Virus genome (UHGV): UHGV-0320970
Origin: a virus
DNA length: 11,098 bases
Reading direction: 5' to 3' (one strand)
Of this stretch, positions 429 to 11,098 are shown piece by piece. The notes under the pieces were generated by a model. It saw nothing but the letters and a program-made list of their open reading frames with translations. It was not told the DNA's origin and ran no database searches. The position numbers and the translations under genes were made by a program. Within the stretch, counting starts at the first letter, position 1. The number at the start of each line of letters is the position of its first letter.

Positions 429-459
429 TTTGACAACGTCGCGTGTTCGGGGCTATATT
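429..459 (+). promoter_or_regulatory. Candidate sigma70 promoter (TTGACA, ~19 bp spacer, TATATT) facing the nin-type operon
   Basis: Consensus -35 hexamer at 429-434 and -10-like hexamer at 454-459; the spacer is longer than optimal. Motif match only. Confidence 0.2.
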
Positions 460-704
460 CCTCACGCGCCAGCAAAACCTGGCGTCGGGATTAGCACCCC
501 GGATATCGAAACGGTGCATAACCGCGCTGGCGGTTTTTTTATGCGCTAAGCACAGTCACATTCGCGATTTATGGCGGGCTGTGTGGGGGAGCCGAAAGGC
601 TCGCCGGATGTTTCGACCGGTAGTGCTAACCCCGCACAGTTCGCCACCACGATGATTAGCACCTGACGGTGGCGAGGTAAAAATTATCGAAACGCGAGGT
701 CATT

Positions 705-2696: not shown

Positions 2697-2890
2697 TGAA
2701 TGCTAAAATTCAAACGATACCTGAATTACTGATCTGCACCAGGGGAAATCAGACAGAAGTCGCCAGAATACTGAACTGCAATCGTGCTACAGTCAGAAAA
2801 TACATTGATGATAAAGATGCGAAAAAGCACGCCGTCGTCAATGGCGTCCTTATGGTTCATCGCGGATGGGGTAAAGATACTGATGCGTGA
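2696..2890 (+). CDS. ninH: NinH-like protein (64 aa)
   Basis: ...[52 protein letters not shown] resembles lambda NinH (HTH-like). The ATG at 2696 overlaps the rusA stop; the track start at 2693 is a TTG three nt upstream. Confidence 0.85.
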
Positions 2891-3263
2891 TATCCGGCAG
2901 GTTCTTGAGCGCTGGGGGGCATGGGCGGTAAATAACTATGAGGATGTTACATGGTCGCCCATTGCTGCCGGATTTAAGGGACTGATCCCCGAAAAAGTAA
3001 AATCACGTCCACAGTGCTGTGACGATGATGCGATGGTGATATGCGGGTGCATAGCCCGCCTTTACCGGAACAATCGCGATCTGCATGACTTGCTGGTTGA
3101 TTACTACGTGTTGGGGGAGACGTTCATGGCGCTGGCACGTAAGCATGGATGCTCTGATGGAACTATCGGTAAAAAATTACAGAAAGCGGAGGGCGTGGTT
3201 GAAGGGATGTTAATGTTACTTGGTGTCAGACTGGAAATGGACCGATATGCGCAACGCCTCTGA
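2883..3263 (+). CDS. Q: Late-gene antiterminator Q, short phage-82 / QuuD-like type (126 aa)
   Basis: The track ORF starts at 2784, but that portion overlaps ninH out of frame. The ATG at 2883 overlaps the ninH stop (ATGCGTGA) and gives [24 protein letters not shown]...[12 protein letters not shown]...[10 protein letters not shown], which matches short Q antiterminators. Last gene of the nin operon, as expected. Confidence 0.85.
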
Positions 3264-3394: not shown

Positions 3395-3988
3395 ATGGAC
3401 ATTGAAGATTTTCTGGAGGCGGAAGACAATGATCTGTCTCTGTGGAATGATGATATTTTAAGCATTGACTGGTTCGTTATCCTCAAAGAGCTTTTGAAAT
3501 ACCAGAACAGGTTAAAGTTAAACTATTCAGAATTACTTCTGCTGGCTAATTTTGTTTCATTTCACCAGGACGTAGATTCGCAAACATTACCATCAATATC
3601 TCTTTTTGCCACCAGAATGCGTGCATCTCGTGCCATTATAGAAGAAGGCTTTCAACGCCTGGAGGAGAAAGGGATGTTGCAGAAGATAAGTTATGCTCAA
3701 ATCGGTCATGATTATGATTTGCGGAACGTTTATGACATCAAGCCATTAATTCGTAAGTTAATTGAGGTGCTGAAAACCGAGTATGATAAAAAGCACACTT
3801 GCCCCCTCTGCGGCAAAATAGCTGTCTCTGATGAGGAAATTGAGAAAAAATTCGGATTCAGAATTTGCGGGAATAAGAAAAGGCCGCAAAGCTGGTGCCG
3901 TTCATGCAGAAGCACGAAACAACGCAGACTGAATTCATCGCTAATTGGCAAAAAAAAGCCCCGAAAATCTCCGCCCGAGGTGGTGTGA
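3395..3988 (+). CDS. Moron-like hypothetical protein, 197 aa: acidic N-terminus, winged-helix-like core, C-terminal zinc-ribbon-like motif and basic tail
   Basis: Strong SD AGGGGG 6 nt before the ATG. Visibly more AT-rich than the nin genes. Core ...RASRAIIEEGFQRLEEKGMLQKI... resembles a winged-helix recognition region. C-terminus has CPLCG ... CRSCR and a Lys/Arg-rich tail. I recognise no family. Confidence 0.7.
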   Translation: MDIEDFLEAEDNDLSLWNDDILSIDWFVILKELLKYQNRLKLNYSELLLLANFVSFHQDVDSQTLPSISLFATRMRASRAIIEEGFQRLEEKGMLQKISYAQIGHDYDLRNVYDIKPLIRKLIEVLKTEYDKKHTCPLCGKIAVSDEEIEKKFGFRICGNKKRPQSWCRSCRSTKQRRLNSSLIGKKKPRKSPPEVV

Positions 3989-4336: not shown

Positions 4337-4421
4337 TATCCGTTCAACGGGAATGTTACATACCTCACAATTAAGTCAGTTGAATGTTGTCTGCCCGGAT
4401 GAGAATTTGTTAGAAAAAACT

Positions 4422-4450
4422 GCATGGTGAATCCCCCTGAGCGGAGGGGC
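4422..4450. repeat. Outer inverted repeat P1 (29 bp), left copy
   Basis: GCATGGTGAATCCCCCTGAGCGGAGGGGC; its reverse complement recurs at 4817-4845 with one mismatch. Confidence 0.85.
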
Positions 4451-4520
4451 GACTGGTGACGGTATAATCTCTGATTATCAAAACGAGAATGACGCGGGTT
4501 TAGTGGCACCGGGCTGAACT

Positions 4521-4575
4521 CACCGGGAGGCACCCGGCACCATGCAATGGCACATAGCGCCACTCTCCAGCCCCT
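4521..4575. repeat. Repeat unit 'a' (55 bp), left arm of a perfect inverted repeat
   Basis: CACCGGGAGGCACCCGGCACCATGCAATGGCACATAGCGCCACTCTCCAGCCCCT; exact reverse complement at 4708-4762 (55/55). Confidence 0.95.
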
Positions 4576-4707
4576 CTCCGGAGGGGCTTTCTTATGGACA
4601 AAAAAGCCCGCGCTGGGAGACGCGGGCGGCAAGGAATAAACAATAAAACGTGAAGTAATATTTCAGCTGGCGAATAATACCCCATAGTAATCACTCTGCG
4701 CAACTGC
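4576..4707. repeat. Spacer S (132 bp) enclosed by the 'a' inverted repeat; contains convergent terminator-like hairpins
   Basis: Plus-strand hairpin GCCCCTC-TCCG-GAGGGGC followed by TTTCTT at the a/S boundary. Minus-strand hairpin GCCCGCG...CGCGGGC followed by a T-run (plus coords ~4600-4627). A near-identical copy of S lies at 10917-11049. Confidence 0.85.
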
Positions 4708-4762
4708 AGGGGCTGGAGAGTGGCGCTATGTGCCATTGCATGGTGCCGGGTGCCTCCCGGTG
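4708..4762. repeat. Repeat unit a' (inverted copy of 'a')
   Basis: Exact reverse complement of 4521-4575. Confidence 0.95.
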
Positions 4763-4816
4763 AATTCAGTACCAGCACCTGAATCCGCGATTATCCCATA
4801 TACCTACTCGCTGATT

Positions 4817-4845
4817 GCCCCTCCGCACAGGGGGATTCACCATGC
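4817..4845. repeat. Outer inverted repeat P1', right copy
   Basis: Reverse complement of 4422-4450 with a single mismatch. Confidence 0.85.
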
Positions 4846-4891
4846 CAGTTTCTTTTAACAAACTCCCCGCAAACCAGACAACAGTCAACCG

Positions 4892-4946
4892 CCGGCACCA
4901 TGCAATGGCACATAGCGCCACTCTCCAGCCCCTCTCCGGAGGGGCT
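4892..4946. repeat. Third copy of the 'a' unit, direct orientation
   Basis: 55/55 identical to 4534-4588 (CCGGCACCATGCAATGGCACATAGCGCCACTCTCCAGCCCCTCTCCGGAGGGGCT); flanks differ. Confidence 0.9.
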
Positions 4947-4981
4947 GTTTATATTGATTTTGTCAGATGTGAGTAAACTCC

Positions 4982-5317
4982 TTATGGACTTTGTTGTTTT
5001 AGCCCATAAGGACATATTTGCAGAGTGCAACGGTTATTAAAGCATTCATTCAATACGTTATCTGTATTTGTAGGGCATTCCTGGCTGTTTTTGATTAAAT
5101 TCCAGAATGTTTTATTGAATGGTACTACGTTGTAAATGGTTACAGGTAGCACTTTGTTATTGAGCATGATGCCTGTGTGAGTCAGTGTAAATATACTTTC
5201 AGGAGGTAAGAAAGCATCCGATTGATACCAGATTATTAATTTTATTTTACTCCATATGACTGAAAAAGATATTCCGCATGATGGCTGGATAACTGTATCA
5301 ATCACAATCCACTTCAT
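4982..5317 (-). CDS. Hypothetical protein (111 aa) in an AT-rich island, orientation opposite to neighbours
   Basis: ORF with plausible SD AAGGAA 6 nt upstream of the ATG on the minus strand. Very AT-rich and similar to nothing I recognise; could be a spurious ORF. Confidence 0.3.
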
Positions 5318-5577
5318 TTAGTTTCCTTGTTTATGCCTTGCTGGTGATGTTCTGAAAAGTATAAATGATATTTTTGATTGTAAACCATAGAGCAGAATTA
5401 TTTTTCTGATGTTGTTTATTGTTTATTTAAATGCAGGGTGGTTTATATCTCGTCTTGTAGTTTATCCATGCATATCTGCTTGATGATGAGGTTTTTATTT
5501 AAGGTATGGTTTTGTGTTTTTTCTGTATTACATGTCAGGTATTTTAAAGAATCATTTTTCAGATGGTGGAAAGAACC

Positions 5578-7521
5578 ATGGCATTTAAACACTATGATGT
5601 TGTCAGGGCGGCGTCGCCGTCAGATCTTGCGGAAAAGCTGACACATAAACTGAAAGAGGGCTGGCAGCCGTTTGGCAGTCCTGTGGCTATCACGCCTTAT
5701 ACACTGATGCAGGCCATTGCCGCAGAGGGTGATGTGACCACGCCTGTGGTTGTGCCCGACACAGGGGCTGGTGGCTCTCCGGGAGTGGCTACCACTGAAC
5801 CGGAGTATTACTACGTTATTCCCCTGGCCGGGCAGTCGAACGGTATGGCCTATGGTGAGGGGCTTCCTCTGCCGGAGACCTATGATCGCCCTGACTCCCG
5901 TATTAAGCAGCTGGCCCGTCGCAGCACTGTGACGCCGGGTGGTGATACCTGTGCATACAATGACGTTATTCCGGCAGACCACTGTCTGCATGATGTTCAG
6001 GACATGAGCGCACTTAACCATCCTCATGCAGACCTGAGTAAGGGCCAGTACGGGACTGTCGGTCAGGGGCTGCATATTGCCAAAAAACTGCTGCCTTATA
6101 TCCCGCAGAATGCCGGGATTCTTCTGGTGCCCTGTTGCCGTGGCGGGTCTGGTTTAACCGTGGGTAATGACGGCACGTTCAGCGAAACGTCTGGTGCATC
6201 GGCAAATTCAGCCCGCTGGGGAGTGGGTAAACCGCTGTATCAGGATTTTCTCTTCCGTACAAAAGCGGCGCTGTCGAAGAACCCGAAAAACAGGCTTCTG
6301 GCCGTGGTATGGATGCAGGGGGAAAATGATCTTGCGGACGGCAGTCAGCAGCACAGCGGCCTGTTTACCACTATGGTGCAGCAGTTCAGGGCTGATATGG
6401 CTGCATATTCTGCACAGTGTGTTGGCGGAAGTGCTGGCTCGGTGCCGTGGATTTGTGGTGACACCACGTATTACTGGAAGAATCTTAACGCCGATAAATA
6501 TGAGGCGGTATATGGCGGTTACAAGGGCAGGGAAGCACAGAATATTTTCTTTGTACCGTTCCTGACGGATGAGAATGGACAGAGCACGCCAACGAATGCT
6601 CCGGCGGAAGACCCGGATATTGTGGCTGTCGGGTATTACGGTGCAGCATCCCGAACCCAGGGCAGTTTTGTTTCGACACAGCGTGACAGCCATTTCAGCT
6701 CATGGGCACGCAGGGGCGTCATTTCAGACCGTCTGGCCTCAGCTATTATGCTCCATGCAGGGCGCACGGCTGAATTGATGCGCGGGCAGACCGTGACACC
6801 ACCGGATGAGAAGCCGTCACCTGATACACCATCAAAACCGTCCACGCCACCCGCAGACACCACGACGATGAGTACGCTATTTGCTTACCGGGCATCTGAG
6901 TCTGAAGGACGGTTGACACCACAGGGTTGGGCTGCTGGAGGTGGCAAGGCTCAAATCGTGGATGATGCCGGAGCCAGCGGGGGTAAGGCAATGAAACTGA
7001 CCAAGGAAACAGGAAGAGCCCCCTGGTACCTTGAGCATGATGCTGGTAATGGTGCGGACCTGCTGGGTAAAGGTGGTCTTGTCAGTTGTCGTTTTAAACT
7101 CGATGGCGCGCTTACGGCTAATCAGTACGCACTGGCGCTGTACTGGCCGGTTTCTTCATTGCCTCAGGGTGTCACACTGGAAGGTAATGCCGGTAACAAT
7201 CTGCTGGCGTCGTTTTACGTACAGAGCGATGCCACAGACCTCAACGTGATGTACCACAAGGGTAACGCTGACCAGAACACGAAGCTGGGGTCATTCGGCG
7301 CATTTGACAACGAATGGCATACGCTGGGTTTCCGTTTTGCCGGTAATAACAGCATTCAGGTGACGCCGGTGATTGATGGTCAGGATGGTGCACCGTTCAT
7401 GCTGTCGCAGTCTCCGGTAGGTTCTTTTGCGGCAGACAAATTACGTGTAACGGATATCACAAAAGCGGCGACGTATACGGTGCTGATTGAAAGTATAACA
7501 GTGGAAGTGAATAACCCGTAA
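5578..7521 (+). CDS. nanS-p: Prophage NanS-p-type sialate O-acetylesterase (N-terminal DUF1737-like domain, SGNH/SASA esterase core, C-terminal putative carbohydrate-binding domain), 647 aa
   Basis: The paralogue starts MAFKHYDVV, so the ATG at 5578 is preferred over the track start at 5563. Core contains YYYVIPLAGQSNGMAYGEG (GQSN nucleophile motif) and CGDTTYYW. Located in the post-Q slot where lambdoid and Stx prophages carry nanS-p. Confidence 0.88.
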   Translation: MAFKHYDVVRAASPSDLAEKLTHKLKEGWQPFGSPVAITPYTLMQAIAAEGDVTTPVVVPDTGAGGSPGVATTEPEYYYVIPLAGQSNGMAYGEGLPLPETYDRPDSRIKQLARRSTVTPGGDTCAYNDVIPADHCLHDVQDMSALNHPHADLSKGQYGTVGQGLHIAKKLLPYIPQNAGILLVPCCRGGSGLTVGNDGTFSETSGASANSARWGVGKPLYQDFLFRTKAALSKNPKNRLLAVVWMQGENDLADGSQQHSGLFTTMVQQFRADMAAYSAQCVGGSAGSVPWICGDTTYYWKNLNADKYEAVYGGYKGREAQNIFFVPFLTDENGQSTPTNAPAEDPDIVAVGYYGAASRTQGSFVSTQRDSHFSSWARRGVISDRLASAIMLHAGRTAELMRGQTVTPPDEKPSPDTPSKPSTPPADTTTMSTLFAYRASESEGRLTPQGWAAGGGKAQIVDDAGASGGKAMKLTKETGRAPWYLEHDAGNGADLLGKGGLVSCRFKLDGALTANQYALALYWPVSSLPQGVTLEGNAGNNLLASFYVQSDATDLNVMYHKGNADQNTKLGSFGAFDNEWHTLGFRFAGNNSIQVTPVIDGQDGAPFMLSQSPVGSFAADKLRVTDITKAATYTVLIESITVEVNNP

Positions 7522-7669
7522 GCAGGAAAAAAAGACCGCCGTGGCAGGGAAAACAAGGAGCCAGAACCGGCGGCAGAAGTCGCTACATCCTTAGCAAAAA
7601 TATGCTGAGCAAAAAATGCAGGAGTTTTTTACTGGCAGGCATTGACCATGTCAATAATGGAGATGAATA

Positions 7670-7852
7670 ATGACATTTTTACAGCTGATTATGTTGTATT
7701 TCTGTACAGCAGTTTGTGTGCTGTATCTTCTTTCTGGTGGGTACAGAGTCGTGAGAGATTTCTGGCGCAGACAGATTGACAAAAGGGCCGCTGAGAAAAT
7801 CAGTGCCAGTCAGTCAGCCGGAACAAAACCCGAAGAGCCTCTCATTCCGTAG
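7670..7852 (+). CDS. Small single-pass membrane protein (60 aa), paralogue of 8424..8606
   Basis: MTFLQLIMLYFCTAVCVLYLLSGGY is a hydrophobic helix, followed by a charged tail. SD GGAG upstream. A diverged copy is conserved on the opposite arm. Confidence 0.6.
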   Translation: MTFLQLIMLYFCTAVCVLYLLSGGYRVVRDFWRRQIDKRAAEKISASQSAGTKPEEPLIP

Positions 7853-7889
7853 CAACTTTCTTAACAACACCTTTCAACGAGAAAATACC

Positions 7890-8414
7890 ATGTCAGAAAT
7901 AAAATCGCTGGTCACTGCTGAAGCAGTGAAGGAAGTCCTGCGCTCTGAAGAAGTCAGAAGCGCACTGAAACAGCAACTTCGGCAGAACCTTGAGGCGCGT
8001 CTTGATGCAGAAGTGGATGCCATTCTGGATGAACTGCTGGGCGCACCGACTGTTCCGGAGCCGGAAGGCATTGCGTACCCCGTCTCCCGCAATCCGGAAG
8101 CTCACAACAATATAAAGACCACCGGCACACACCGATGGTCCCTTGCGCATGCTTACATCATCATGTCGCTGTCAGGTGTAGGTTCACCGCCATCTGAAGC
8201 ACTCCCGTCACCCGCGATACCTTCCGGCTCAGGAACCGCTGCTACGCCCAGCAGCTCATCCAGAATGGCATCCACTTCTGCATCAAGACGCGACTCAAGA
8301 TTCTGGCGAAGTTTCTGTTTCAGTGCGCTCCGGACCTCTTCAGAGCGCAGGACTTCCTTCACTGCCTCTGCAGTGACCAGGGATGTGATTTCTGACATGG
8401 GATTTTCTCGCTGA
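7890..8414 (+). CDS. 81-aa-family acidic helical protein, plus-arm copy; homology ends near 8078 and the ORF then reads through the palindrome centre antisense to the other copy (possibly truncated or fused)
   Basis: MSEIKSLVTAEAVKEVLRSEEVRSALKQQLRQNLEARLDAEVDAILDELLG...PEPEGIA matches the minus-arm copy for 63 aa, then diverges with no nearby stop. Confidence 0.45.
   Translation: MSEIKSLVTAEAVKEVLRSEEVRSALKQQLRQNLEARLDAEVDAILDELLGAPTVPEPEGIAYPVSRNPEAHNNIKTTGTHRWSLAHAYIIMSLSGVGSPPSEALPSPAIPSGSGTAATPSSSSRMASTSASRRDSRFWRSFCFSALRTSSERRTSFTASAVTRDVISDMGFSR
8153..8398 (-). CDS. 81-aa acidic helical protein, minus-arm copy (apparently intact)
   Basis: MSEITSLVTAEAVKEVLRSEEVRSALKQKLRQNLESRLDAEVDAILDELLG...PEPEGIAGDGSASDGGEPTPDSDMMM with its own stop at 8153-8155. 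Confidence 0.6.
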   Translation of the reverse strand: MSEITSLVTAEAVKEVLRSEEVRSALKQKLRQNLESRLDAEVDAILDELLGVAAVPEPEGIAGDGSASDGGEPTPDSDMMM

Positions 8415-8423
8415 AAGGGGTTG

Positions 8424-8606
8424 TTAAGGAGTAACGGGTTCTTCGGGTTTGCTTCCGGCTGACTGACTGGCGCTGATTTTCTCAGCGGCCCTTTTATCAA
8501 TCTGCCTGCACCAGAAATCGCGCACAGCCCTGTACCCACCCGAAAGAAGATACAGCACACAGACCGCCGTACAGAAGTACAGCATCACCTGATGAATAAA
8601 TGTCAT
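8424..8606 (-). CDS. Small single-pass membrane protein (60 aa), paralogue of 7670..7852
   Basis: MTFIHQVMLYFCTAVCVLYLLSGGYRAVRDFWCRQIDKRAAEKISASQSAGSKPEEPVTP; diverged from the plus-arm copy at several positions, so not a recent exact duplicate. Confidence 0.6.
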   Translation of the reverse strand: MTFIHQVMLYFCTAVCVLYLLSGGYRAVRDFWCRQIDKRAAEKISASQSAGSKPEEPVTP

Positions 8607-8745
8607 AATTTCTTACCGTTATGGTTGACAATGAGAATTGTTTTCATTTAAAAAACCAATGTACGAAAGCATCTTTTCTTTACATTCTCCATTGGGATTA
8701 CCTCCGCCAGCTTCCATTCCTGCCGCTGGCGGCTTTTTTTAGCAA

Positions 8746-10656
8746 TTATGCGGCTGCTCCAGCTTTGTTTGCTTTAACTTCCACCGTATCAATAAGTACA
8801 GGGTAGGTTTCTGCACTACCTGTAATATCCGTAATGACAAACCTGTTGAGTCCATTAGCAGTATTGGCCCATTTCACCAGGTCAAACGCCTGTCCATCCA
8901 CACCATCGAGCACCGGAGTAACATTAATGCTGTTACTGCCCTTAAATTTAAATGCAAGCGTATGCCAGTCATGGTCGAATGCGCCAAACGTGCCAAGTTC
9001 TTTTTGTTGATTAACTGTATGATGGTATGCAACATTAATACTGGCTTTATCTGTCTGGACAAAGAAAGAACTCAGATGGCCTTCACCACCCTCACCCGGC
9101 CATTCCGCTATTCGCCAGTACAAACCAAAGGCATACTTGTTTCTGGTTGTCTCAAGATTGACGTTTTCGGGGATTTTAAACCGGACAGCAATTTCCCCGC
9201 CTTTTTCCAGTAAAAGTTTTGCCTTGTCTGCAGCAATATCACAGTACATTGACCAGGATTTCGCGCTGTTATTTTTCTCAATTCGCAGAGCTTTATTGCC
9301 GCTGTCATCAACCAGTGTGCGTCTGCCATACATACCGTCCCAGCCATAAGGTTTCAGCTGATTGTCTGTAGCTTTTTTGGCATCGTAAAAAATTACAGAC
9401 TCTGAGGTGGTAACCGGCCTGTCTGGAACAACCACCCCGGCAGTACCATTAACAAACGCAGAAGACTTACCCGCGCAGCTCAGAATCGCCGTTGCCAGAC
9501 GGTCGGAAATAATCCCACGGCGAGCCCATGAACTGAAATGGCTCGCCCTGTCCTGTGACGTCCAGGTGGCTGAGCTGTCACGCCATTTCGAACCGTAATA
9601 ACCGATACCCGGAATGTCCGGGTCTTCTTCCGGTTTGTTCGTCGGCACATTCACCCCGTTCTCATCGGTCATGAACGGTACGAAATGGATATTCTTTTCC
9701 GTTTTATTTTTATAGCTGCCGTACACCGTCTGGTACGTGGATTCGTTCTTCTGCTTCCAGAAATACGTCGTGTCCCCGCATATCCAGGGAACACCGCCAG
9801 CAGAGCCACCGACGCACTGGCCTGCCATATCCGCCAGGTCTGCACGGAATTTATCAACCAGCGCACCAAACTGTGCGGCATGATTTGCCGGCGTACCGCC
9901 AAAATCAAATTCCCCCTGCATCCACACCACGGCAAACAGCACATTTTTCGGGTTCTTCTCCAGTGCCGCTTTTGTTCGACCGATAAGGTCCTTATACAGC
10001 GGCTTGTCCACACCCCAGCGGGTTGAATTCTCCGAGGCACCACTCGCGTCACTGTATGTGCCATCAGCTCCGGTGGTGAACGCTGAACCACCACGACAGC
10101 ACGGAACCAGCAGAATGCCCGCATTCGCCGGTATAAACGGCAGCAGTTTTTTGGCGATATGCAGCCCCTGCCCCACGGTTCCGTACTGCCCCTTTGACAG
10201 GTCCGCTTTCGGATGGTTAAGACGGCTCATGTCCTGCACATCATGCAGACAATGGTCCGCCGGAATGATGTCGTTATATTTGCATGCTGCACCGCCCGGT
10301 GTCACCGTACTGCGACGCGCTAACTGTTTAATACGTGGATCAGGGCTGTCGAATGTATCCGGTAATGGCAGTCCCTCACCGTATGACATACCATTGGACT
10401 GACCAGCAAGCGCGATCACATAGTAATATTCTGGCGCAACAGAAGGCGCTGAGGTCGTCGGACGGTTGCCTGGCTCCTCTGGTGATGAGATGCTCCCCTC
10501 ACTCACAACTGGCTGGATGAACTCCGCACCATAACCAGCTGTCGAAATCAGCGCACTACCATAAGGCTGCCACCCTTCCTTCAGTTTTTGAGTTATTCGT
10601 TTCGCAAGGTCTGACGGCGACGCCGCCCTGACAACATCATAGTGTTTAAATGCCAT
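8746..10656 (-). CDS. nanS-p: Second, diverged NanS-p-type sialate O-acetylesterase (636 aa)
   Basis: MAFKHYDVVRAASPSDLA..., YYYVIALAGQSNGMSYGEG, CGDTTYFW. Strong SD GGGAGG 5 nt upstream on the minus strand. Same three-domain layout as 5578..7521 but with many substitutions, especially in the linker and C-terminal domain. Confidence 0.9.
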   Translation of the reverse strand: MAFKHYDVVRAASPSDLAKRITQKLKEGWQPYGSALISTAGYGAEFIQPVVSEGSISSPEEPGNRPTTSAPSVAPEYYYVIALAGQSNGMSYGEGLPLPDTFDSPDPRIKQLARRSTVTPGGAACKYNDIIPADHCLHDVQDMSRLNHPKADLSKGQYGTVGQGLHIAKKLLPFIPANAGILLVPCCRGGSAFTTGADGTYSDASGASENSTRWGVDKPLYKDLIGRTKAALEKNPKNVLFAVVWMQGEFDFGGTPANHAAQFGALVDKFRADLADMAGQCVGGSAGGVPWICGDTTYFWKQKNESTYQTVYGSYKNKTEKNIHFVPFMTDENGVNVPTNKPEEDPDIPGIGYYGSKWRDSSATWTSQDRASHFSSWARRGIISDRLATAILSCAGKSSAFVNGTAGVVVPDRPVTTSESVIFYDAKKATDNQLKPYGWDGMYGRRTLVDDSGNKALRIEKNNSAKSWSMYCDIAADKAKLLLEKGGEIAVRFKIPENVNLETTRNKYAFGLYWRIAEWPGEGGEGHLSSFFVQTDKASINVAYHHTVNQQKELGTFGAFDHDWHTLAFKFKGSNSINVTPVLDGVDGQAFDLVKWANTANGLNRFVITDITGSAETYPVLIDTVEVKANKAGAAA

Positions 10657-10720
10657 GAATCCTCCCGGCCGGGATAATATTGTGAGTAAAATAAGGAGCG
10701 GGCTGAAGTCCGGAAGTTAC

Positions 10721-10838
10721 AGGACAATGGCAGAAGGGAGACTACAGCCCGCAATTCGAAAAAGGTCGCGCAGTTGCGCAGAGTGATTACTATGGGGTAT
10801 TATTCGCCAGCTGAAATATTACTTCACGTTTTATTGTT
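10721..10838. repeat. Left arm of the terminal palindrome (118 bp)
   Basis: Reverse complement of 10981-11098, checked by eye over both ends. Its inner ~70 bp is the reverse complement of the right part of spacer S. Confidence 0.85.
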
Positions 10839-10916
10839 GATTCAGGTGCTGGTACTGAATTCACCGGGAGGCACCCGGCACCATGCAATGGCACATAGCG
10901 CCACTCTCCAGCCCCT
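10839..10916. repeat. 78-bp block identical to the reverse complement of 4708-4785 (flank R0 plus unit 'a')
   Basis: GATTCAGGTGCTGGTACTGAATT followed by the 55-bp 'a' unit; exact match to the reverse complement of the locus-1 a'+flank. Confidence 0.9.
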
Positions 10917-11049
10917 CTCCGGAGGGGCTTTCTTGTGGGCAAAAAAAGCCCGCGCTGGGAGACGCGGGCGGCAAGGAATAAACAATAAAACGTGAAGTAA
11001 TATTTCAGCTGGCGAATAATACCCCATAGTAATCACTCTGCGCAACTGC
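10917..11049. repeat. Second copy of spacer S, same plus-strand orientation as 4576-4707
   Basis: Near-identical to 4576-4707 apart from an extra A in the A-run and two substitutions (CTTATGGACA vs CTTGTGGGCA). Confidence 0.9.
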
Positions 11050-11098
11050 GCGACCTTTTTCGAATTGCGGGCTGTAGTCTCCCTTCTGCCATTGTCCT
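10981..11098. repeat. Right arm of the terminal palindrome, running to the window edge
   Basis: Reverse complement of 10721-10838; the palindrome may continue beyond the window. Confidence 0.85.

Follow-up and report, generated by a model that had tools for sequence, protein, structure and literature searches.

The closest described relative of the gene considered here is IraL of the uropathogenic Escherichia coli strain CFT073, a paralogue of IraM with which it shares 58.9% identity (PMC4045071). [quoted passage not shown] The gene is transcribed in log phase in CFT073 from a sigma-70-type promoter, whose predicted -10 and -35 elements resemble the sigma-70 consensus (PMC4045071), and it has been reported as enriched in uropathogenic E. 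coli and Shigella. For the K-12 relative, the study of the IraM-RssB structure describes the IraM core as an unusual beta-barrel which resembles only PmrD and which remodels the RssB linker.

These systems help to interpret a locus in a stretch of viral DNA of 11,098 nucleotides (UHGV virus genome UHGV-0320970; hereafter the window), in which an earlier note, made from the letters of the DNA, had singled out an AT-rich island with an oppositely oriented ORF upstream of the first of two nanS-p copies. The comparisons presented below argue that this ORF is iraL, a prophage-borne anti-adaptor gene carried as cargo (a "moron") of lambdoid prophages, a reading to which we assign a probability of roughly 0.93. 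As iraL is an already characterised gene, the finding is already known and in that sense ordinary; it settles the annotation question posed by the block. The features of the locus are as follows:

4880..4956, plus strand: 3' fragment of an STnc100-family sRNA (Rfam RF02076, model positions 119-206, E=0.002)
4947..5576, no strand: iraL cassette, 630 bp with about 33% GC, standing in place of a 232-bp spacer
4982..5317, minus strand: iraL coding sequence, 111 aa, predicted RssB anti-adaptor of the IraM/IraL family
5318..5350, minus strand: iraL 5' UTR, 33 nt, with the transcription start site (TSS) at 5350 and the Shine-Dalgarno sequence AAGGAA at 5323-5328
5358..5384, minus strand: iraL promoter of sigma-70 type, with -10 TATACT at 5358-5363 and -35 TTTACA at 5379-5384, as read from the sequence relative to the TSS
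5393..5437, minus strand: conserved upstream block shared by the iraL cassette and the Stx2c-phage cassette, a candidate regulatory site
5578..7521, plus strand: nanS-p copy 1, with DUF1737, SASA esterase and DUF6645 domains (Pfam), divergent from iraL and forming the right edge of the cassette

Identity of the minus-strand gene

The block at 4947-5577 is indeed the AT-rich island that the earlier note had taken it for, with a GC content of 32.8% as against 48.8% across the whole window; the ORF at 4982..5317 has 34.8% and the spacer at 5318-5577 30.4%, while the two nanS-p copies stand at 54.6% and 50.9%. The 111-aa minus-strand ORF is likewise confirmed as intact and opening with ATG, and the ribosome-binding site which had been judged reasonable is found as AAGGAA (5323-5328, minus strand), 5 nt ahead of the ATG.

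The search for homologues proposed in the same note returned an identical IraL, a score above the cut-off of the IraM family model and a match to the solved IraM core. Specifically, the ORF product is 100% identical to CFT073 IraL (c1429), the two being the same RefSeq protein, WP_000871291.1. NCBIfam model NF007393 (IraM) covers residues 1-110 of 111 with 162 bits against a cut-off of 121 (E=4.7e-48), and phmmer against the PDB recovers 8twd_A, "Anti-adapter protein IraM" (E=9.1e-32), with residues 1-78 aligned gap-free; identity to K-12 IraM is 62% over 107 aa. Among the PHROGs the product matches phrog_4407 (E=3e-73), a phage protein family of unknown function. The Pfam scan of the ORF returned no family, which reflects a gap in the library and does not count against the gene, since Pfam has no model for this family. 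Further, the subtype IraL, as opposed to IraM, has been assigned where the whole coding region is 95% or more identical to iraL of CFT073 (PMC4045071); the window copy deviates at 1 of 336 nt, with no change in the protein (100% identity). The promoter and 5' UTR specific to iraL are present as well, in that the published mRNA end maps to the locus and the upstream DNA aligns with that of CFT073 and not with that of K-12.

The earlier note had granted equal standing to the view that the ORF is spurious, i.e., an open frame arisen by chance in non-coding, AT-rich filler from which no protein is made. Some properties of the ORF would sit well with this. At least 111 open codons occurred in 48 of 5000 mononucleotide shuffles of the block and in 111 of 5000 first-order Markov shuffles, making the ORF length only modestly significant (p about 0.01-0.02); length cannot alone settle the status of the ORF as a gene. 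Additionally, GC content is flat at the three codon positions (34.8% each), and Pfam is without a match. However, a chance frame would not yield a product identical to an experimentally characterised protein, exceeding the cut-off of a curated HMM and matching a solved homologue structure, nor the observed pattern of substitution. Over its 336 bp the coding sequence differs from that of CFT073 at one position, which is synonymous, as against about 3 differences per 100 bp in the adjoining non-coding DNA. The Nei-Gojobori dN/dS ratio is 0.17 relative to K-12 iraM and 0.13 relative to the paralogue in phage 2851, and lies between 0.10 and 0.17 over all diverged pairs, with synonymous sites near saturation. 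Hence, iraL is under purifying selection, and because the lone coding difference is synonymous and the ratios are this low, the view of the ORF as spurious is rejected; homology and selection have already refuted it, and its probability is negligible. A second ORF, on the plus strand at 5438..5641 (67 aa), was rejected as a gene as it has no PHROG match and merely runs into the nanS-p start.

The cassette and its surroundings

The limits of the block emerge from a BLAST comparison with an iraL-free prophage, that of O157:H7 strain OK1. Window positions 4892-4946 pair with 2645-2699 of the OK1 locus (L004) and 5577-5714 with 2932-3069, the DNA between the two pairs being unrelated; the OK1 spacer between the shared flanks measures 232 bp and has 49% GC. 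Since the OK1 prophage shares both flanks with an unrelated spacer between them, the block represents a replacement of 232 bp by 630 bp. The earlier note had regarded it as an indel of about 630 bp relative to the paralogous arm of the window: the 630-bp AT-rich block is real, but it is not a plain insertion. The canonical 232-bp spacer is of the same type as the DNA 5' of nanS-p copy 2 in the window, and the segment of about 64 bp (10657-10720) that had been taken as the whole counterpart on that arm represents just that portion of the canonical spacer which lies outside a local inverted repeat. Upstream of copy 2 there is nothing similar to the block, in agreement with the claim that it is confined to copy 1.

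The cassette ends exactly at the STnc100 terminator stem (4946) and at the nanS-p ATG, and the two arms are homologous from the start codon of nanS-p onward, with 5577 pairing with 10657. A synthetic query for the empty site, in which the STnc100 end was joined to the nanS-p start, recovered no exact empty site; its matches led to O157 prophages with the canonical spacer of 232 bp. Relative to CFT073, window 4892-5736 is collinear at 97.75% identity with no gaps. The exact limits, i.e., the exchange of 232 for 630 bp from the terminator of an sRNA up to the start codon of nanS-p, are a new if modest detail. As regards the right edge, the list of ORFs starts nanS-p copy 1 at ATG 5563 (652 aa), whereas the RefSeq-annotated equivalent in DA33133 starts at the position of 5578; the annotation of this identical locus and the onset of homology to copy 2 both indicate the latter as the real start.

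The left edge is marked by an intrinsic-terminator hairpin, CAGCCCCTCTCCGGAGGGGCTG (4926-4947), followed by TTTATATTGA, which a terminator scan detected on the plus strand and which faces the 3' end of iraL, 34 nt past its stop codon. Positions 4892-4946 are 100% identical to the 3' end of STnc100 in both CFT073 and O157 OK1, and the RF02076 match falls below the gathering score because this copy is truncated. The Rfam E-value search of 4880-5620 found nothing within the block except this 3' fragment, and the tRNA scan of the whole window found no tRNA genes. This GC-rich hairpin may also terminate the convergent iraL transcript. A reading of this hairpin (4926-4947) as the tR' terminator of the phage was dropped, as STnc100 lies 3' of tRNA genes and far from Q in CFT073 and O157.

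The window contains further copies of the STnc100 family besides the plus-strand fragment at 4880-4956, namely at 4394-4599 (plus), 4698-4874 (minus) and 10751-10940 (plus). These are set in nested inverted repeats (4514-4575 with 4708-4769, and 10721-10843 with 10976-11098), the members of each pair being 132 nt apart. In CFT073, DA33133, E. albertii, ECMA0423 and O157 OK1 the segment corresponding to 4708-4893 has the opposite orientation, and none of the 5,426 complete E. coli genomes contains the junctions found in the window at 4707/4708 and 4891-4893.

The equivalent region of CFT073 runs in the order Q, IS200, tRNA Ile/Arg/Arg, DUF3927, STnc100, iraL (minus strand), nanS-p remnant, holin and lysozyme; that of DA33133 is similar, with a DNA methyltransferase replacing IS200. 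In both prophages the block thus occupies the late region, 3' of the tRNA genes and 5' of nanS-p and the holin and lysozyme genes. It is a discrete AT-rich cassette of the late region of lambdoid prophages with its own promoter, and it displays the properties by which a moron is recognised: a discrete block, absence from related phages, a TSS of its own and a deviating base composition.

Several observations concern the remainder of the window. From 5578 to 10656 it is quasi-palindromic, with a centre at about 8075-8150, where one arm, with nanS-p copy 1 (plus strand) and a truncated DUF826 ORF, runs tail to tail into the other, made up of a DUF826 gene, a 5' holin fragment and, on the minus strand, nanS-p copy 2; inverted repeats pair 7860-8075 with 8213-8428 (89%) and 7654-7856 with 8420-8622 (82%). 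The central junction occurs in no complete E. coli genome, homology of the second arm stopping at 8076, and the structure may be either the genuine remnant of a rearranged prophage or a chimera of the assembly. A megablast of the entire window reached a coverage of no more than 50% in any complete E. coli genome. At 453-651 (plus strand) Rfam identifies isrK as well as C4 antisense RNA and its a1/b1 target, just 5' of an ORF6N/P22AR antirepressor gene (705-1370); together they correspond to an antirepressor control module of the P1/P7 or Gifsy type, set within an early-right region of lambdoid kind. A 197-aa plus-strand ORF (3395-3988) with DnaD N-terminal-like and HTH_36 domains separates the Q antiterminator gene (2784-3263) from the STnc100 elements, a position which in other prophages is held by a DNA methyltransferase or IS200 plus tRNA genes.

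Promoter, putative regulation and the question of silence

The 5'-RACE end published for CFT073, ACATCACCAGCAAGGCATAAACAAGGAAACCA (PMC4045071), maps to 5350..5319 on the minus strand with 31 of 32 bases matching, a level of agreement at which chance would give no match; the TSS accordingly lies at 5350, and the 5' UTR measures 33 nt. The "-100 to +33" designation of the complementing iraL fragment in the CFT073 work agrees with a UTR of this length (PMC4045071). The -10 hexamer is retained in the phage 2851 paralogue, where it reads TATAAT. With a spacer of 15 nt, the iraL promoter escaped a simple promoter scan; the promoters which the scan did report, at 5425-5397 and 5266-5239, are no more than chance expectation and were set aside. 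Relative to CFT073 the promoter and UTR carry substitutions at -28 (5378), -1 (5351) and +31 (5320), with both hexamers unchanged. Some strains carry an iraL allele with a variant -35 element, of unknown activity (PMC4045071).

Further upstream, the segment shared with the Stx2c-phage cassette offers, together with the exact cassette limits and that second cassette itself, a handle for studying the regulation of iraL, a matter left open by the 2014 paper. A search with the PhoP box pattern, (T/G)GTTTA-N5-(T/G)GTTTA, recovered the direct repeat TGTTTA-TTGTT-TATTTA at 5413-5429 (plus strand), at -63 to -79 from the TSS and with 1 mismatch. This was the 1 match in the window where 0.14 were expected, and at least one match arose in 26 of 200 shuffles (13%). 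The PhoP-box-like repeat, TGTTTATTGTTTATTTA, is hence best viewed as a candidate regulatory site, a lead and not a result; the upstream block may, by way of this repeat, link the stabilisation of RpoS with signalling through PhoPQ. A search of the region of iraM in K-12 found no PhoP box at up to 1 mismatch, and the pattern could therefore not be used as a positive control.

A stronger version of this lead would hold that the present copy acts like K-12 IraM, being induced through PhoP/PhoQ at low Mg2+ and not constitutive in log phase. The repeat at 5413-5429 is the sole one of its kind in the window, the 73%-identical cassette of phage 2851 retains the 11-bp register (CGTTTA-TTCTT-TGTTTA), and iraM has been described as induced under magnesium starvation, all of which would favour such a behaviour. 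However, the repeat has one mismatch in AT-rich DNA, where 13% of whole-window shuffles produce a match, and the site is inverted and lies at a long distance upstream of the TSS (-63 to -79). Moreover, the upstream regions of iraL and K-12 iraM are not alignable, and the published phenotype of iraL is log-phase activity without added stress. Induction after the manner of K-12 IraM is thus unlikely.

An AT-rich composition also raises the question of silencing, in the sense of an intact iraL that is transcriptionally silent in this host, whether coated by H-NS or through a weak promoter allele, and has no effect on RpoS in ordinary growth. The block has 33% GC and the promoter region 30%, and the three promoter and UTR substitutions relative to CFT073 could be seen in the same light. 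Regulation by H-NS of the K-12 homologue iraM is reportedly the subject of a study by Battesti from 2012. As is typical of H-NS targets, CFT073 has less iraL mRNA at 23 C than at 37 C, the shift from the lower to the higher temperature raising it by 1.6 log2 (PMC12890032). This rise is, however, compatible with partial thermoregulation of the H-NS type and does not amount to silence. Indeed, CFT073 iraL shows activity in log-phase cultures in LB, the window has the same -10 and -35 hexamers, the coding sequence is strictly conserved, and the best E. coli matches to the present allele agree with it at every position of the 721-bp query, with 814 records at 99% or above. A silent copy is accordingly quite improbable, more so than one under PhoP control. 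The earlier note had suggested silenced, horizontally acquired cargo: the cargo part is supported by the discrete AT-rich late-region cassette with its own promoter, whereas silencing finds no support in the published data on the identical gene, which is transcribed in log phase. We infer that iraL is expressed in this particular strain. In CFT073 itself, IraL levels are additionally raised in a fur mutant (PMC7157518).

Relatives and comparison with described anti-adaptors

The cassette is widespread. At least 80% of a 721-bp query (4900-5620) was recovered by megablast in 1,428 of the 5,426 complete E. coli genomes, many matches being 100% identical and annotated as "anti-adapter protein IraM" beside a "SASA family carbohydrate esterase"; nanS-p adjoins the block in every locus and listed match examined. 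A scan of species-representative genomes detected an identical IraL in E. albertii NBRC 107761, and iraL is also present in E. coli ECMA0423. In phage records, tblastn recovered a near-identical IraL (98.2%) in four temperate coliphages and a 73.6%-identical paralogue in about 40 Stx2/Stx2c phages. The latter is mostly unannotated among the matches listed, with one record naming it iraM. In phage 2851 the paralogue (FM180578 24233-24562; L005 5001-5324) lies between stx2cB and nanS-p, antisense to both. The phage 2851 cassette is 73% identical to the block over 915 nt, comprising the gene, the upstream spacer and the 5' end of nanS-p, the flanking hairpin is 96% identical to that of the window, and stx2c lies within the same stretch from the tRNA genes to nanS-p. 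No functional study of the IraM/IraL-like ORF of the Stx2c phages was found among the sources searched here. The presence of a homologous, mostly unannotated cassette beside stx2c is a new detail, as is the conserved upstream block common to both cassettes.

With respect to function, both RssB binding and RpoS stabilisation are carried over from the literature on the identical CFT073 protein. By this analogy, IraL of the present locus would bind the N-terminal receiver domain of the adaptor RssB, and RssB so bound would no longer hand the general-stress sigma factor RpoS to ClpXP; with RssB blocked, lysogens would hold more RpoS in exponential growth. The gene has a sigma-70-type promoter of its own in the AT-rich spacer, divergent from nanS-p, and lies antisense to the late-operon strand that carries nanS-p. 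In lambdoid phages, Q-modified RNA polymerase reads through terminators. On prophage induction the late transcript could shut iraL off by transcriptional interference, this being possible because of the antisense placement of iraL. Further, the iraL cassette may represent one allele of a set of exchangeable anti-adaptor morons in a fixed slot upstream of nanS-p, a family that would include the largely unannotated third paralogue directly 3' of stx2c in the Stx2c phages. These three readings, i.e., the exchangeable anti-adaptor slot, the tie to PhoPQ and the interference by the late transcript, are of low probability and are offered as tentative proposals.

Among known systems, PmrD is a relative of IraM in fold. 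It is like IraM in binding the receiver domain of a response regulator, but its target is PmrA and no sequence match to IraL was seen. K-12 IraM (YcgW/ElbA, b1160; PDB 8TWD) belongs to the same NCBIfam family and has the same target, RssB. Unlike iraL, K-12 iraM is sited beside the end of the e14 prophage, and the DNA upstream of it is unrelated; IraM contacts both domains of RssB whereas IraL contacts only the N-terminal one, the inducing conditions differ, and IraL has four extra C-terminal residues. The ORF of the Stx2c phages occupies the same slot as the window gene, immediately 5' of nanS-p and antisense to it, with a homologous promoter region and hairpin; it differs from the window iraL in lying directly 3' of stx2cB, in its length of 107 aa and in the -10 element TATAAT. 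The closest system is IraL of CFT073 (YcgW, c1429), from the potB prophage island (Hryckowian et al. 2014, mBio, PMC4045071), with a protein 100% identical to that of the window. There the UTR matches at 31 of 32 positions of the mRNA end, the -10 and -35 elements are the same and the coding sequences differ by one synonymous change. The neighbours are likewise the same, with the STnc100 terminator 3' of iraL and nanS-p 5' of it. However, the STnc100 element of CFT073 is intact and convergent, whereas its 5' part in the window (4708-4893) is inverted, and nanS-p of CFT073 is cut down to a DUF1737 fragment, whereas the copy in the window is full length.
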